From assembly GCF_055900595.2 (NCBI RefSeq), contig NZ_CM148325.1: a stretch of DNA of 64,000 nt; one strand, written 5' to 3'. Made by a program: the position numbers and the translations under genes. Positions 38,202 to 43,449 of this stretch are shown here, one piece after another. The notes under the pieces were generated by a model. The model did not search any database. It was not told the DNA's origin and worked only from the letters and a program-made list of their open reading frames with translations. Position 1 is the stretch's first letter; each line of letters starts with the position of its first letter.

Positions 38202-39116
38202 TTATTGTGGCCAAAGCTGCTGGTGTAAAGACTCAACGACATCAGCAATACGCGGACCCATTCCCAGAATCAGGTTTTGATCAACGGTGATAATGCGCTG
38301 GTTTTTCCATGCGGCAGTGTGGGTAATTCCGGCAATAGAACGTAGCCGGTTAATATCGCCATCGACCATTTGTGAGGTTACGACAATCACTTCTGGATTA
38401 GCCGCAATCAGTGATTCTGCACTGTAGCTTTTGTACTGCTGGTGGGTTGCGACGTTTTCTGCTCCGGCAAGCGAAAGAATGGCGTCCGCGACGCTGCCTT
38501 TACCGGCAACCTGTGGCGCACTTCCGCCTGCGGAGAGAATAAACATGGCTTTAACCGGGGCTTTTTTGGCCGCCACGTTTTGCTGTACTCGCTCCAGGCG
38601 TTGGTTGATCTGTGTCACCAGCGCCTCGCCTTGTTCAGGAACCTGTAGCGTTTTTGCCAGTTGGCGAATGTTGGCGTACATCTGCTCAAGGGTGGCAGGC
38701 ACACGCGGCAGGGTGACGACGTTGACTTTCTGCGCTCGTAGTTGGTCGAGCACAATTTGTGGCCCGGCATCCTGCCAGGTAATTACGCTATCCGGGCGAA
38801 GTGACAAAATGCCTTCGCTGCTGAGTTGTTTCCAGTAGCCAATATGCGGCAGTTTGGCGGTTTCTGGTGGATAAGATGTCGTTTCATCGACACCAACCAC
38901 GCGTTCGCCAGCGCCCATCGCGTAGATTAGCTCCGTCAGCGATCCTCCTGCGACCACGATACGTTCGGCAGCCGTTACGCTAAAAGCCCAGCTAAGAGCC
39001 AGTACTGCCGTAAACAATTTTTTTCGTTTTACCGCGGTCTTCGCGGCAGAGGCCACGGCTGAAATACATAACGTCAGTGGGGAAAAAAGAAACGGCCTGG
39101 TGATGATCCTTGGCAT
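38202..39116 (-). CDS. chuT: ChuT, periplasmic haem-binding protein of the ABC importer, about 304 aa
   Basis: Translation recognised as ChuT/ShuT. Start set at MPRIITR because the longer six-frame ORF would place the Fur box inside the coding sequence; exact start uncertain. Confidence 0.85.
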   Translation of the reverse strand: MPRIITRPFLFSPLTLCISAVASAAKTAVKRKKLFTAVLALSWAFSVTAAERIVVAGGSLTELIYAMGAGERVVGVDETTSYPPETAKLPHIGYWKQLSSEGILSLRPDSVITWQDAGPQIVLDQLRAQKVNVVTLPRVPATLEQMYANIRQLAKTLQVPEQGEALVTQINQRLERVQQNVAAKKAPVKAMFILSAGGSAPQVAGKGSVADAILSLAGAENVATHQQYKSYSAESLIAANPEVIVVTSQMVDGDINRLRSIAGITHTAAWKNQRIITVDQNLILGMGPRIADVVESLHQQLWPQ

Positions 39117-39140
39117 AATATGAGAACTCTTATCAAATTG

Positions 39141-39161
39141 AGAATGATCATGATTATCATT
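39141..39161. promoter_or_regulatory. Fur box at the chuT promoter
   Basis: AGAATGATCATGATTATCATT closely matches the Fur consensus GATAATGATAATCATTATC, about 25 bp upstream of the chuT start. Confidence 0.7.
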
Positions 39162-39490
39162 TGAGTTATATATGAAATACAACCGTCGATTCAATACGCA
39201 AGGCGTTACAAGCGTATTTATTTTTGATTTTTATCAAGATGCTTCGTCAGCTAACGTTCTTGTTACCGACTAAATTTCAGCGCGGGAAAAAGCTGAGAAC
39301 CCAGAGATATCGCGGCTTGCAGAGCAAAGAGAAGAGAAAATTATCACTGTTAACGACAAAGTTTAGTGATGAGGTTATGGGGGAATAACCATAAAAACAA
39401 AGTGGTTTCCAGGGCGCAGGATAGGTTTCATAACCCCCTGTTTATTGTGTTAATGGCGGTTAAAAAAAGCTTGATCATAAAAAATTGATC

Positions 39491-39509
39491 GATAATAATT
39501 CTCATTATC
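39491..39509. promoter_or_regulatory. Fur box at the chuA promoter
   Basis: GATAATAATTCTCATTATC is a near-consensus Fur box about 290 bp upstream of the chuA ATG, implying a long 5' UTR. Confidence 0.7.
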
Positions 39510-39798
39510 ACGTTCGCGCTTAACAAAACACGACCATATGGATAACAAAACCATAGCATTTGCAAGGGATAACGCACAGCGCTCTTCACTCCTGATGGGG
39601 CATATCGTTTTGCCTGATAAAGAGGGCGTGCTTTTGCGTATTTGCCGAGATACCAGGCAATTTCATGGGATATAAACGCCTGTAAACTCACCCGGCGAAT
39701 ATTATCGCTCTGAATTTTAAATAAATTTATTTCTCGCAAGCCACCCCGGTATTAACCCAGGCAGCCAGCATTTTTTATTTTCCTCATGGAGAATCGCT

Positions 39799-41781
39799 AT
39801 GTCACGTCCGCAATTTACCTCGTTGCGTTTGAGTTTGTTGGCTTTGGCTGTTTCTGCCACCTTGCCAACGTTTGCTTTTGCTACTGAAACCATGACCATT
39901 ACGGCAACGGGGAATGCCCGTAGTTCCTTCGAAGCGCCTATGATGGTCAGCGTCATCGACACTTCCGCTCCTGAAAATCAAACGGCTACTTCAGCCACCG
40001 ATCTGCTGCGTCATGTTCCTGGAATTACTCTTGATGGTACCGGACGAACCAACGGTCAGGATGTAAATATGCGTGGCTATGATCATCGCGGCGTGCTGGT
40101 TCTTGTCGATGGTGTTCGCCAGGGAACGGATACCGGACACCTGAATGGTACTTTTCTCGATCCGGCGCTGATCAAGCGTGTTGAGATTGTTCGCGGACCT
40201 TCAGCATTACTGTATGGCAGTGGCGCGCTGGGTGGGGTGATCTCCTACGATACGGTCGATGCAAAAGATTTATTGCAGGAAGGACAAAGTAGTGGTTTTC
40301 GTGTCTTTGGTACTGGTGGCACGGGGGACCATAGCCTGGGATTAGGCGCGAGCGCGTTTGGGCGAACTGAAAATCTGGATGGTATTGTGGCCTGGTCCAG
40401 TCGCGATCGGGGTGATTTACGCCAGAGCAATGGTGAAACCGCGCCGAATGACGAGTCCATTAATAACATGCTGGCGAAAGGGACCTGGCAAATTGATTCA
40501 GCCCAGTCTCTGAGCGGTTTAGTGCGTTACTACAACAACGACGCGCGTGAACCAAAAAATCCGCAGACCGTTGAGGCTTCTGAAAGCAGCAACCCGATGG
40601 TTGATCGTTCAACAATTCAACGCGATGCGCAGCTTTCTTATAAACTCGCCCCGCAGGGCAACGACTGGTTAAATGCAGATGCAAAAATTTACTGGTCGGA
40701 AGTCCGTATTAATGCGCAAAACACGGGGAGTTCCGGCGAGTATCGTGAACAGATAACAAAAGGAGCCAGGCTGGAGAACCGTTCCACTCTATTTGCCGAC
40801 AGTTTCGCTTCTCACTTACTGACATATGGCGGTGAGTATTATCGTCAGGAACAACATCCGGGCGGCGCGACGACGGGCTTTCCGCAAGCAAAAATCGATT
40901 TTAGCTCTGGCTGGCTACAGGATGAGATCACCTTACGCGATCTGCCGATTACCCTGCTTGGCGGAACCCGCTATGACAGTTATCACGGTAGCAGCGACGG
41001 CTACAAAGATGTTGATGCTGACAAATGGTCATCTCGTGCGGGGATGACTATCAACCCGACCAACTGGCTGATGTTATTTGGCTCATATGCCCAGGCATTC
41101 CGCGCCCCGACGATGGGCGAAATGTATAACGATTCTAAGCACTTCTCGATTGGTAGCTTCTATACCAACTATTGGGTGCCAAACCCGAACTTACGTCCGG
41201 AAACTAACGAAACTCAGGAGTACGGTTTTGGGCTGCGTTTTGATGACCTGATGTTGTCCAATGATGCCCTGGAATTTAAAGCCAGCTACTTTGATACCAA
41301 AGCGAAGGATTACATCTCCACGACTGTCGATTTCGCGGCTGCGACAACTATGTCGTATAACGTCCCGAACGCCAAAATCTGGGGCTGGGATGTGATGACG
41401 AAATATACCACTGATCTGTTTAGCCTTGATGTGGCCTATAACCGTACCCGCGGCAAAGACACCGATACCGGGGAATATATTTCCAGTATTAACCCGGATA
41501 CCGTTACCAGCACCCTGAATATTCCGATCGCTCACAGTGGCTTCTCTGTTGGTTGGGTCGGTACGTTTGCCGATCGCTCAACACATATCAGCAGCAGTTA
41601 CAGCAAACAACCTGGCTATGGTGTGAATGATTTCTACGTCAGTTATCAAGGGCAGCAGGCGCTCAAAGGTATGACCACTACTCTGGTATTGGGCAACGCC
41701 TTCGACAAAGAGTACTGGTCGCCGCAAGGCATCCCACAGGATGGTCGTAACGGAAAAATTTTCGTGAGTTATCAATGGTAA
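39799..41781 (+). CDS. chuA: ChuA, TonB-dependent outer-membrane haem/haemoglobin receptor, 660 aa
   Basis: Translation recognised as ChuA/ShuA; signal peptide, TonB-box region, C-terminal aromatic terminus (SYQW). Confidence 0.95.
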   Translation: MSRPQFTSLRLSLLALAVSATLPTFAFATETMTITATGNARSSFEAPMMVSVIDTSAPENQTATSATDLLRHVPGITLDGTGRTNGQDVNMRGYDHRGVLVLVDGVRQGTDTGHLNGTFLDPALIKRVEIVRGPSALLYGSGALGGVISYDTVDAKDLLQEGQSSGFRVFGTGGTGDHSLGLGASAFGRTENLDGIVAWSSRDRGDLRQSNGETAPNDESINNMLAKGTWQIDSAQSLSGLVRYYNNDAREPKNPQTVEASESSNPMVDRSTIQRDAQLSYKLAPQGNDWLNADAKIYWSEVRINAQNTGSSGEYREQITKGARLENRSTLFADSFASHLLTYGGEYYRQEQHPGGATTGFPQAKIDFSSGWLQDEITLRDLPITLLGGTRYDSYHGSSDGYKDVDADKWSSRAGMTINPTNWLMLFGSYAQAFRAPTMGEMYNDSKHFSIGSFYTNYWVPNPNLRPETNETQEYGFGLRFDDLMLSNDALEFKASYFDTKAKDYISTTVDFAAATTMSYNVPNAKIWGWDVMTKYTTDLFSLDVAYNRTRGKDTDTGEYISSINPDTVTSTLNIPIAHSGFSVGWVGTFADRSTHISSSYSKQPGYGVNDFYVSYQGQQALKGMTTTLVLGNAFDKEYWSPQGIPQDGRNGKIFVSYQW

Positions 41782-41829
41782 TCATCTGCCCCGATATTTC
41801 GGGGCATTTATCTGGAAGGAAGAGAGACA

Positions 41830-42858
41830 ATGAACCACTACACACGCTGGCTTGAGTTAAAAGAACAAAATCCCGGAAAGTACGCGCGTGACATCGCAGG
41901 TTTAATGAATATTAGCGAAGCAGAACTGGCATTTGCGCGCGTCACGCACGATGCGTGGCGGATGTGCGGCGATATCCGTGACATTCTGGCGGCGCTCGAA
42001 AGTGTTGGCGAGACCAAATGTATTTGTCGTAATGAATATGCAGTCCATGAGCAAGTTGGTGCGTTCACAAACCAGCATTTAAACGGACATGCCGGATTGA
42101 TCCTCAATCCGCGCGCGCTGGATTTGCGTCTGTTTCTCAATCAATGGGCCAGTGTTTTCCACATCAAAGAAAATACGACTCGTGGCGAACGCCAGAGTAT
42201 TCAGTTCTTTGATCATCAGGGCGATGCATTACTAAAAGTTTATGCCACCGACAATACCGATATGGCGGCATGGAGTGAGCTTCTGGCACGGTTTATCACC
42301 GATGAGAATACGCCGCTTGAGTTAAAAGCCGTTGATGCGCCAGTTGTTCAAAAGCGAGCCGATGCCAGTGTGGTCGAGCAAGAGTGGCGGGCGATGACCG
42401 ACGTTCATCAGTTTTTTACGTTGCTCAAGCGCCACAACCTGACGCGCCAACAGGCGTTCAATCTGGTGGCAGATGATTTGGCCTGCAAAGTATCCAACAG
42501 TGCGTTGGCGCAAATTCTTGAATCTGCACAGCAGGATGGCAATGAAATCATGGTGTTTGTTGGCAACCGTGGCTGCGTACAGATTTTCACTGGCGTGGTA
42601 GAAAAAGTGGTGCCAATGAAAGGTTGGCTGAATATTTTTAACCCGACGTTTACTCTTCATCTATTAGAAGAGAGCATTGCTGAAACCTGGGTAACCCGTA
42701 AACCTGCTAGTGACGGTTATGTGACCAGTCTGGAATTGTTTGCCCATGATGGTACGCAGATAGCGCAACTTTATGGTCAACGTACAGAAGGCGAACAGGA
42801 GCAAGCGCAATGGCGTAAGCAAATTGCTTCGCTGATACCGGAAGGCGTTACTGCATAA
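41830..42858 (+). CDS. chuS: ChuS, haem oxygenase / haem degradation protein, 342 aa
   Basis: Translation recognised as ChuS/ShuS. Confidence 0.93.
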   Translation: MNHYTRWLELKEQNPGKYARDIAGLMNISEAELAFARVTHDAWRMCGDIRDILAALESVGETKCICRNEYAVHEQVGAFTNQHLNGHAGLILNPRALDLRLFLNQWASVFHIKENTTRGERQSIQFFDHQGDALLKVYATDNTDMAAWSELLARFITDENTPLELKAVDAPVVQKRADASVVEQEWRAMTDVHQFFTLLKRHNLTRQQAFNLVADDLACKVSNSALAQILESAQQDGNEIMVFVGNRGCVQIFTGVVEKVVPMKGWLNIFNPTFTLHLLEESIAETWVTRKPASDGYVTSLELFAHDGTQIAQLYGQRTEGEQEQAQWRKQIASLIPEGVTA

Positions 42859-42918
42859 CGTATAATTAAAGGGAGGTCTGGCTATTTATTGCTGGGCCTC
42901 TTTATATTAATCAATCGA

Positions 42919-43449
42919 TCACACCAGATAATCAATATGCTGATGGCGTACCAACTCATTGATCCGCTTAAGATTGAGGATCATCATGATATTGTGTTTA
43001 TGGCAGTAGAACGTTTTTAGCGATATTTTCAGTTTCTCCAGAATATCTTCCGTTGTCATTTGATTCGCAATGCAGCTCAGAACCTGATGCTGCTTGCGCG
43101 AAAGGGACACATCCGCTTCAGGCACAGAGCAGTAACTGCCATTGATGAGTGCGACAAAGTCGATGATGGTGATAGTTCGCGGAACAAAGGTCACCGGTAC
43201 TTTCCCCAGGCAGCGTTTAATATTAAAGGGAGAGAAAATAATCACATGGACAGGTTTTAATCGTTCAATCTGAGTGAGCAAATTAGAATGAAATACATTA
43301 TTCATTAATGTATCAATAATGACGAAGGCATGCTGATGCAACATTACGTCGATCTCTTCTTCGTTCTGTATATGAACGACATTACCTTTGCTCAGAATGT
43401 TTTTCATCGCAGTGAAGAACATCGTATCCCTGGTAATTATAAGAAACAT
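42919..43449 (-). CDS. dctR: LuxR-family regulator DctR (YhiF), 176 aa
   Basis: Translation recognised as DctR/YhiF. Confidence 0.93.
   Translation of the reverse strand: MFLIITRDTMFFTAMKNILSKGNVVHIQNEEEIDVMLHQHAFVIIDTLMNNVFHSNLLTQIERLKPVHVIIFSPFNIKRCLGKVPVTFVPRTITIIDFVALINGSYCSVPEADVSLSRKQHQVLSCIANQMTTEDILEKLKISLKTFYCHKHNIMMILNLKRINELVRHQHIDYLV

Follow-up and report, generated by a model that had tools for sequence, protein, structure and literature searches.

A probable Fur operator and 291-nt chuA leader in an Escherichia coli chu/shu locus, compared with experimentally characterised alleles

Described chuA and shuA leaders and their relatives

A chuA leader that carries a Fur operator, a thermometer, small RNA sites and Rho attenuation is already known and has been characterised experimentally. 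Transcription of chuA and shuA is repressed by Fur (PMC3660397; PMC9002310, the latter citing Torres & Payne 1997). Kouse et al. (2013, PLoS One 8:e63781, PMC3660397) found that the leaders of shuA and of UPEC chuA drive more translation of a reporter at 37°C than at 25°C, and they bounded the S. dysenteriae shuA untranslated region (UTR) by RT-PCR at 278 to 342 nt. In their mutants, a U-to-C change at -19 kept expression low at 37°C, and a U-to-A change at -19 (chuA) or a C-to-A change at -17 (shuA) raised expression at 25°C. The FourU element and its surroundings were reported to be completely conserved among shuA and chuA (PMC3660397).

For E. coli O157:H7 strain Sakai, dRNA-seq placed the primary 5' end of chuA at 4,391,862, which gives a 5' UTR of 291 nt (Sy & Tree 2022, Front Microbiol 13:821196, PMC9002310). 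Term-seq located 3' ends within this leader at +129, +271, and +297, and termination at +271 was sensitive to bicyclomycin and required the stretch from +177 to +217, a proposed Rho loading site that lowers expression about 9-fold; the same authors considered it probable that some additional factor, not yet identified, tunes termination by Rho, and ARNold gave no intrinsic terminator in the leader (PMC9002310). The small RNA CyaR activates chuA by direct pairing about 15 nt upstream of the Shine-Dalgarno sequence (SD), as compensatory mutants demonstrated, and this activation is independent of both the hairpin and Rho, while a U273A hairpin mutant of EHEC gave a consistent response to temperature and stem mutation (PMC9002310). 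Hfq crosslinks were located at the ribosome-binding site and at +160 to +200 of the leader. RyhB and the EHEC-specific Esr41 repress chuA translation by pairing near the ribosome-binding site, and ChiX represses chuA indirectly.

Two further thermometers are relevant for comparison. The founding member of the FourU class, that of Salmonella agsA (RF01795), served as the positive control in the study of Kouse et al. (PMC3660397) and shares with chuA the four U residues that pair with the SD in a short, heat-weakened hairpin, but the two have no homology in sequence or structure, and the chuA hairpin is the last element of a 291-nt leader with small RNA sites and Rho termination. The Salmonella-type model RF01795 gave no match at E <= 10 in positions 38900-40100 of the DNA analysed here, and this missing homology leaves the FourU assignment of chuA intact, as the class is a matter of motif and mechanism and not of common descent. 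The second is the 5' UTR of shuT, the divergent gene that shares the intergenic region with chuA (Wei et al. 2017, MicrobiologyOpen 6:e00442). In contrast to the chuA leader, it is short (42 nt), has its Fur site past the transcription start, at the published positions +1 to +19, and carries a thermometer described as distinct from that of shuA. The published shuT Fur site maps exactly to a second Fur-box match at 39140-39158, and the shuT thermometer and Fur site are an element separate from the chuA leader.

The chu locus, its Fur operator and the start of the leader

Our analysis covers a window of 64,000 nucleotides (64 kb), by which we mean the whole stretch of DNA under study. We conclude with high confidence that the interval of interest within it represents the Fur operator and the 291-nt leader of chuA in an E. 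coli/Shigella chu/shu locus, under the kind of layered control described above. The 32 nt, the 7-bp hairpin, their position and the gene that follows are common to RF02597, the alleles of Kouse et al. and this interval; the element is unchanged relative to those alleles, and the middle of the leader is about 79% identical to the UPEC type. The leader of Sakai (Sy & Tree 2022; Waters et al. 2017, EMBO J 36:374) is likewise 291 nt long and is 96% identical, with the Fur box, the region +177 to +217, the CyaR site, the hairpin and the ribosome-binding site all identical to the window. Esr41 is described as EHEC-specific, so this input may be absent in the present non-O157 background.

The open reading frame (ORF) that follows the leader encodes 660 amino acids with Plug and TonB-dependent beta-barrel domains (Pfam), and an E. 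coli genome that is 100% identical gives its product the name 'TonB-dependent heme/hemoglobin receptor ChuA/ShuA'; the ChuA/ShuA annotation of the downstream gene recurs across 2236 E. coli genomes. ChuA is a haem receptor associated with virulence. An 801-bp segment (39100-39900) is 100% identical to E. coli Z0117EC0005, and the gene order, with shuT/chuT pointing leftward and chuA-chuS rightward, is that of the usual chu locus, flanked by yhiD on one side and dctR/slp on the other. The features discussed below are as follows.

38202-39116, minus strand: shuT, from the annotation of Z0117EC0005
39471-39499, plus strand: predicted chuA sigma-70 promoter, TTGATC-17-AATAAT, from a consensus scan
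39491-39509: Fur box, GATAATAATTCTCATTATC, lying across the -10 element and +1
39508, plus strand: transcription start (+1), placed by homology with Sakai and uncertain by a nucleotide or two
39508-39798, plus strand: 5' untranslated leader of chuA, 291 nt, by homology with Sakai
39538-39675 (+31 to +168), plus strand: candidate upstream ORF (uORF) of 45 codons, from the ORF list
39611-39636, plus strand: small terminator-like hairpin and U-run, TGCCTGATAAAGAGGGCG followed by TGCTTTTGCG, from a terminator scan
39684-39724, plus strand: region of Rho sensitivity in Sakai (+177 to +217), by homology, with the window identical to Sakai
39756-39775, plus strand: predicted CyaR pairing site, CCCAGGCAGCCAGCAUUUUU, the best local duplex
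39770-39801, plus strand: match to Rfam RF02597, 'shuA/chuA 5' UTR thermoregulator', 60.1 bits, E = 1.3e-08
39777-39794, plus strand: FourU hairpin of 7 bp, from the Rfam match and folding
39778, plus strand: Rho-dependent termination point +271, published in Sakai and mapped by homology
39799-41781, plus strand: coding sequence of chuA, TonB-dependent haem/haemoglobin receptor, from the ORF, its domains and the annotation
41830-42858: chuS, the next gene after chuA, from the annotation of Z0117EC0005

The Fur box GATAATAATTCTCATTATC agrees with the Fur consensus GATAATGATAATCATTATC at 16 of 19 positions on the plus strand and 17 of 19 on the minus strand, and its end lies 290 bp from the A of the chuA ATG. 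These counts bear out the preliminary description, made from the letters of the window, which had placed a near-consensus Fur box about 290 bp before that codon. At three or fewer mismatches the 64-kb window contains just two Fur-box matches, the one at 39491-39509 and the one at 39140-39158 (0.02 expected from shuffles), and both lie inside the shuT/chuT-chuA intergenic region. The predicted promoter consists of the -35 element TTGATC (39471-39476), a spacer of 17 nt and the -10 element AATAAT (39494-39499), and it is the sole sigma-70-like site on the plus strand within 39000-39900. The consensus scan gave three sites against 2.9 expected in shuffles, and the chuA promoter is to be read as a prediction only. 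The Fur box covers both the predicted -10 element and the +1 mapped by homology. It is identical in all six alleles that cover the stretch, where the -10 element is also invariant, and the promoter as a whole is near-invariant in the six, with one substitution in the -35 region of Sakai and substitutions in the spacer of E. albertii and E69.

Alignment of the window with Sakai needs no indel anywhere between the Fur box and the ATG, and together with the published dRNA-seq start it places +1 at 39508. This position is within the Fur box, 9 nt past the predicted -10 element. The Sakai record has the chuA ATG at 4,391,571 on the minus strand, which fits a 291-nt UTR exactly. As a cross-check, Sy & Tree number a mutated uracil U273 and Kouse et al. 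place theirs 19 nt before the start codon; both designate 39780 only if +1 is 39508. The leader differs from that of Sakai at 11 of its 291 positions (+8, +11, +12, +74, +111, +134, +143, +146, +173, +226, and +231). The unusually long chuA 5' UTR that had been proposed at the outset agrees with the 291 nt obtained from Sakai dRNA-seq and the indel-free alignment. Published 5' ends from this 96%-identical allele are incompatible with a start in the last 40 nt or so before the ATG.

We surveyed 5426 complete E. coli genomes, among which the chu intergenic region is present in 2236. The 87 nt that run through the ATG (39715-39801) are at least 95% identical in 2234 of the 2235 chuA-positive genomes, and the middle 195 nt of the leader fall into two allele classes, with at least 95% identity in 1006 genomes and 60 to 80% in 1230. 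Two substitutions in the present allele, +226 T>C and +231 C>A, are rare; they fall past the +217 boundary and just short of the CyaR site, and the variant of the 87-nt stretch that contains them occurs in 10 of the 2235 genomes. In an alignment of seven sequences, +263 to +302 is invariant in all seven, the hairpin included, and the least conserved stretch of the leader is +183 to +202, with a fraction of 0.15 invariant columns. This is a canonical element that adds nothing new to biology from this window and is essentially invariant in the 2235 chuA-positive E. coli genomes.

Beyond E. coli proper, using one genome per species, the element was found in E. albertii, two divergent 'E. coli' species representatives and Escherichia sp. 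MOD1-EC7003, and it is unchanged in E. albertii and the three other Escherichia representatives. The pattern scan behind this result demanded the exact stem with loop and spacer left free, a design to which diverged stems are undetectable, and it returned 13 loci, of which four are Escherichia chuA leaders and nine belong to unrelated taxa and were taken as chance without inspection; these nine presumed chance matches aside, the scan found no copy of the thermometer outside Escherichia.

FourU hairpin, small RNA sites and Rho

From a T-rich sequence around the chuA ribosome-binding site, the preliminary description had proposed a FourU-type thermometer and a possible small RNA target. The quoted sequence, CAGCATTTTTTATTTTCCTCATGGAGAATCGCTATG, is present at 39766-39801, and the thermometer reading is upheld by the RF02597 match, which lies above the gathering score (60.1 bits against 58) and concerns the same element that Kouse et al. 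mutated (PMC3660397). The match spans model positions 1-32 of 32 with the consensus matched at 32 of 32, ends on the ATG (39799-39801) and is the single above-threshold Rfam match in 38900-40100. The hairpin pairs a 5' arm, AUUUUCC (39777-39783), across a UCAU loop with a 3' arm, GGAGAAU (39788-39794). Its four U residues (39778-39781) pair with A39793, A39792, G39791, and A39790, and C39782 and C39783 pair with G39789 and G39788, with a U.G wobble at 39780-39791. The SD GGAG (39788-39791), which lies 7 nt before the AUG, is buried by the hairpin.

The residues changed in the published mutants are present in the window, the -19 U at 39780 and the -17 C at 39782, and the same changes were made in silico at 37°C. 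Against -6.1 kcal/mol for the wild type, the U-to-C change at -19 gave -8.7 kcal/mol, the U-to-A change at -19 gave -2.5 kcal/mol and the C-to-A change at -17 gave -1.7 kcal/mol; the stability shifts of all three follow the published directions. By homology with the mutagenised alleles, translation of chuA is probably thermoregulated in this strain.

Among the other Rfam matches, Hammerhead_HH9 at 38988-39063 scored 20 bits where the gathering score is 52 and was rejected as chance, and so were the remaining matches besides RF02597, all of them far under threshold.

Folding with ViennaRNA changed the free energy of the hairpin from -8.4 kcal/mol at 25°C to -6.1 kcal/mol at 37°C (a change of about 2.3 kcal/mol), and the opening energy of the stretch from the SD to the AUG (39786-39801) in the full leader fell from 11.4 to 9.1 kcal/mol over the same range. 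Whatever the temperature, the hairpin appeared in the predictions for the isolated element and for the full leader, in which its pair probabilities were 0.76 to 0.98; at 37°C the SD was more than 99% paired in the model, and the melting point of the isolated hairpin was about 70 to 75°C. From 15 to 45°C we saw gradual weakening and no switch. The comparison of 25°C and 37°C that the preliminary description had suggested thus showed the weakening and not a temperature-dependent opening of the SD, and it does not discriminate: it neither supports nor refutes the thermometer, because every hairpin weakens with temperature. Nearest-neighbour folding cannot display a thermometer switch, and the evidence for one is the published mutagenesis of the same element. 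The covariation term from RNAalifold was +1.09 for six alleles, with compensatory changes in 3 of 75 pairs and no variable pair in the hairpin, and the FourU hairpin draws no covariation support since it never varies. The whole 336-nt leader was no better folded than its dinucleotide shuffles (z = -0.10), and a large, structured, riboswitch-like domain is therefore unsupported.

The proposal of a small RNA target is matched by the published roles of CyaR, RyhB and Esr41 and by the location of the best CyaR duplex at the published position. When the leader was scanned in 28-nt windows, the top CyaR duplex involved +241/+249 to +268 (39748/39756-39775) at -18 to -20 kcal/mol, with CyaR nucleotides 19-40, extending to 19-47, as partners in the best duplexes. 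The predicted site abuts the 5' arm of the hairpin, in agreement with the published location, and is near-invariant across the Escherichia alleles, with E. albertii alone differing, at two positions. The CyaR sequence used as query was confirmed as RF00112 (100.7 bits) and is 100% identical in E. coli genomes. The cyaR gene itself lies outside the window; it was found in 5423 of the 5426 complete E. coli genomes, and its presence in this genome is very likely. A full-length RNAduplex comparison of CyaR with the leader had produced unrealistic duplexes of 80 nt, with 22 of 200 shuffles as good, and was replaced by the windowed scan.

We observed directly the sequence features of the locus, which are identical or nearly identical to those of the studied alleles, together with the hairpin, the complementarity to CyaR and the conservation pattern. 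The regulatory events are those of the literature, transferred by homology, and they would combine as follows. In the presence of iron, Fur would occupy the 19-bp box at 39491-39509, over the -10 element and +1, and would block initiation; in its absence, a transcript would begin at about 39508, and part of the elongating transcript would be ended by Rho near +271 in a manner dependent on +177 to +217. Full-length mRNA would be translated poorly at 25°C, where the 7-bp FourU hairpin would pair UUUUCC with the GGAGAA of the SD, and at 37°C a weaker hairpin would give the ribosome access. CyaR would pair just upstream of the hairpin (39756-39775) and raise expression independently of it, and RyhB, together with Esr41 in EHEC, would repress by pairing near the ribosome-binding site. 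The chuA leader would in this way layer control by iron (Fur), temperature (FourU), carbon status (CyaR), iron sparing (RyhB and Esr41) and Rho, and it is an experimentally validated riboregulator and promoter that a reader can recognise from sequence alone, without tools.

An effect of RfaH on ChuA is said to have been described by Nagy et al. in 2001. The ops element GGCGGTAGNNTG had no match at two or fewer mismatches on either strand of 38857-43001, and for this reason the effect of RfaH on ChuA is probably indirect.

Alternative readings of the leader and minor leads

The 290 bp between the Fur box and chuA could in principle be a spacer with no leader at all if a second promoter near the ATG drove the gene. 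We consider this extremely unlikely: nothing in its favour came to light, the consensus scan found no promoter-like site on the plus strand of 39500-39799, the primary 5' end in Sakai lies at -291 by dRNA-seq (PMC9002310), the RT-PCR bounds on the S. dysenteriae shuA UTR (278-342 nt, PMC3660397) agree with a long leader, and Hfq crosslinks and Term-seq 3' ends fall inside it (PMC9002310). We attach equally little credence to the notion that the interval matters as the coding sequence of a minus-strand protein. A 103-codon ORF with a TTG start does run along the minus strand at 39428-39739, and Hücker et al. (2017) worked with an older Sakai annotation that listed ECs4381 (4391722-4391928) in the equivalent place, but ECs4381 showed very low RNA-seq and RIBOseq values (coverage 0.16 to 0.42; Hücker et al. 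2017) and RefSeq at present annotates it neither in Sakai nor in the 100%-identical genome. Moreover, the frame ends elsewhere in Sakai owing to a 1-nt indel relative to the window. The minus-strand ORF has no Pfam match; more generally, Pfam gave none for the two antisense ORFs or for a 54-aa intergenic ORF.

A leader-ORF attenuator, in which translation of the uORF at 39538-39675 would gate Rho loading at +177 to +217 and termination at +271 and the thermometer would be secondary, also seems very unlikely to be the main account of this leader, even though more speaks in its favour. The uORF begins with ATG in five alleles and GTG in one, its frame stays open for 34 to 53 codons in all six, which differ by up to about 20%, and the other two frames are shut within 1 to 9 codons; the resulting p of about 0.02 for retention holds only under an assumption of independence that overstates significance, and an ATG ORF of at least 45 codons occurs in 13% of shuffled leaders. 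For codons 1-27, 12 of 15 allele pairs have a pN/pS ratio below 1, a figure based on just some 17 synonymous sites, and the C-terminal third is altered between alleles by frameshifting indels, so that the length varies. The ATG has no Shine-Dalgarno sequence upstream (AACAAAACACGACCAT), the product has no Pfam match, and the A-rich 5' end of the leader is already accounted for as (ARN)n Hfq-binding motifs (PMC9002310). The stop codon does lie 9 nt short of the stretch on which Rho sensitivity depends in Sakai, and Sy & Tree held that a further factor probably modulates Rho termination in a paper from which the uORF is absent (PMC9002310). However, when +1 to +116 was removed from the Sakai leader, expression rose only about 2-fold and bicyclomycin sensitivity persisted (PMC9002310), and the latter result argues against a need for the uORF in Rho action. 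In the Sakai RIBOseq supplement of Hücker et al. (2017), the sole entry for the leader is the antisense ECs4381, with negligible signal, and the signal in the chuA region was too low to judge the uORF. The narrower proposal that the uORF (+31 to +168) is translated, and that ribosome traffic along it sets the access of Rho to +177 to +217 and constitutes the factor postulated by Sy & Tree, strikes us as improbable in its own right. The reading that we prefer remains that of a Fur operator followed by a 291-nt leader with a thermometer, small RNA sites and Rho termination.

The uORF, the terminator-like hairpin at 39611-39636 and a long-range helix are the leads that fall outside the literature searched, and all of them are weak; the uORF or the hairpin, if confirmed, would refine a detailed existing model and would not open a new one. 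A still weaker variant would have the stretch +87 to +97 pair with the start-codon region (+290 to +300) as a long-range lock on initiation. This 11-bp helix is 95.5% paired in six alleles, through one-sided wobble changes only, and by our own estimate its length is at chance level for an RNA of 330 nt. As for the hairpin and U-run at 39611-39636, the hairpin itself spans 39611-39628, within the variable middle of the leader; six alleles preserve its helix (alignment columns 106-110/120-124), and one double change occurs among them. The element coincides with +129 (= 39636), where Term-seq placed a 3' end in Sakai (PMC9002310), and we infer a link between the two.

Predicted structures and a short ORF within the chuA leader

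The 291-nt chuA leader (39508-39798, + strand; +n counts from +1 = 39508, placed by homology to E. coli O157:H7 Sakai) holds several elements in addition to its start-proximal region.

39538-39675, + strand: upstream ORF of 45 codons within the leader
39594-39604 (+87 to +97) with 39797-39807, + strand: predicted 11-bp long-range helix with the start-codon region
39611-39636, + strand: conserved island amid the variable mid-leader
39733 (+226 T>C) and 39738 (+231 C>A): substitutions that set the window apart from nearly all other chuA leaders

The island is made up of a hairpin of 5 bp (UGCCU/GGGCG) and, directly after it, UGCUUUUG; its position is that of the Sakai 3' end which Term-seq placed at +129. 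An ARNold search by Sy & Tree (PMC9002310) found no intrinsic terminator. The predicted long-range helix is 95.5% paired over the six alleles compared: it is complete in the alleles of UPEC, E. albertii, SCPM-O-B-8794, and E69, and has a mismatch in those of the window and Sakai. It is not demonstrable because the changes across the six alleles are one-sided wobble changes only.

The upstream ORF retains its start codon and open frame in all six Escherichia alleles, and its stop codon lies 9 nt 5' of the region needed for Rho-dependent termination. It has no Shine-Dalgarno sequence, its C terminus is not conserved among the alleles, and Sy & Tree 2022 make no mention of it; the statistical case for this ORF is weak. 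Both substitutions lie 3' of the truncation boundary at +217 and 5' of the CyaR site (39756-39775), and the variant of the 87-nt start-proximal block (39715-39801) that carries them is confined to 10 of the 2235 chuA-positive complete E. coli genomes.

The divergent shuT/chuT side and the antisense strand

38988-39063, - strand: sub-threshold Rfam match to Hammerhead_HH9 (E = 0.044)
39140-39158: second Fur-box match from the consensus scan, upstream of shuT/chuT (- strand, ATG 39116)
39428-39739, - strand: 103-codon ORF with a TTG start, from the ORF scan of the window
~39442-39648, - strand: equivalent of ECs4381

The second Fur-box match coincides exactly with the published shuT Fur site, which occupies +1 to +19 of the 42-nt shuT 5' UTR (Wei et al. 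2017, PMC5458455). Placed on the window, the published transcription start is 39158, 42 nt 5' of the start codon, leaving 350 bp between the divergent shuT and chuA starts. A distinct RNA thermometer has been reported within this 42-nt UTR (Wei et al. 2017, PMC5458455), which corresponds to 39117-39158, where an Rfam scan gave no family match. The Hammerhead_HH9 match falls within the shuT coding region; it scores 20.3 bits, where the family's gathering score is 52, and is almost certainly due to chance.

ECs4381, a 207-nt gene of the chuA-chuT intergenic region in the older Sakai annotation (4391722-4391928; Hücker et al. 2017), apparently lies antisense to the promoter and leader of chuA. 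Its RIBOseq signal was negligible (Hücker et al. 2017), and it is absent from the current RefSeq annotation of Sakai. The related 103-codon ORF had no Pfam match.

Interrupted chuA leaders in other genomes

In Escherichia sp. MOD1-EC7003, which belongs to another Escherichia species, a 125-nt insertion (L016:153-277) interrupts the middle of the chuA leader at a point opposite window position ~39653/39654 (about +146). The inserted sequence also occurs, at 80 to 95% identity, in unannotated intergenic places of 2872 E. coli genomes, and we take it to resemble the ERIC/IRU intergenic repeat. The leader tolerates this insertion, which lies 5' of the conserved proximal block.

The chuA leader of E. 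coli WP4-S17-ESBL-03 (L018; NZ_AP022044.1, 235000-248500) is broken at about +21. An annotated IS26 copy adjoins each broken end, the second lying beside a split rlmJ, and the ~9-kb segment between the copies, with chuA-chuS, is inverted relative to chuT. This layout has the appearance of an inversion mediated by IS26, and in this strain it parts chuA from its Fur-controlled promoter.
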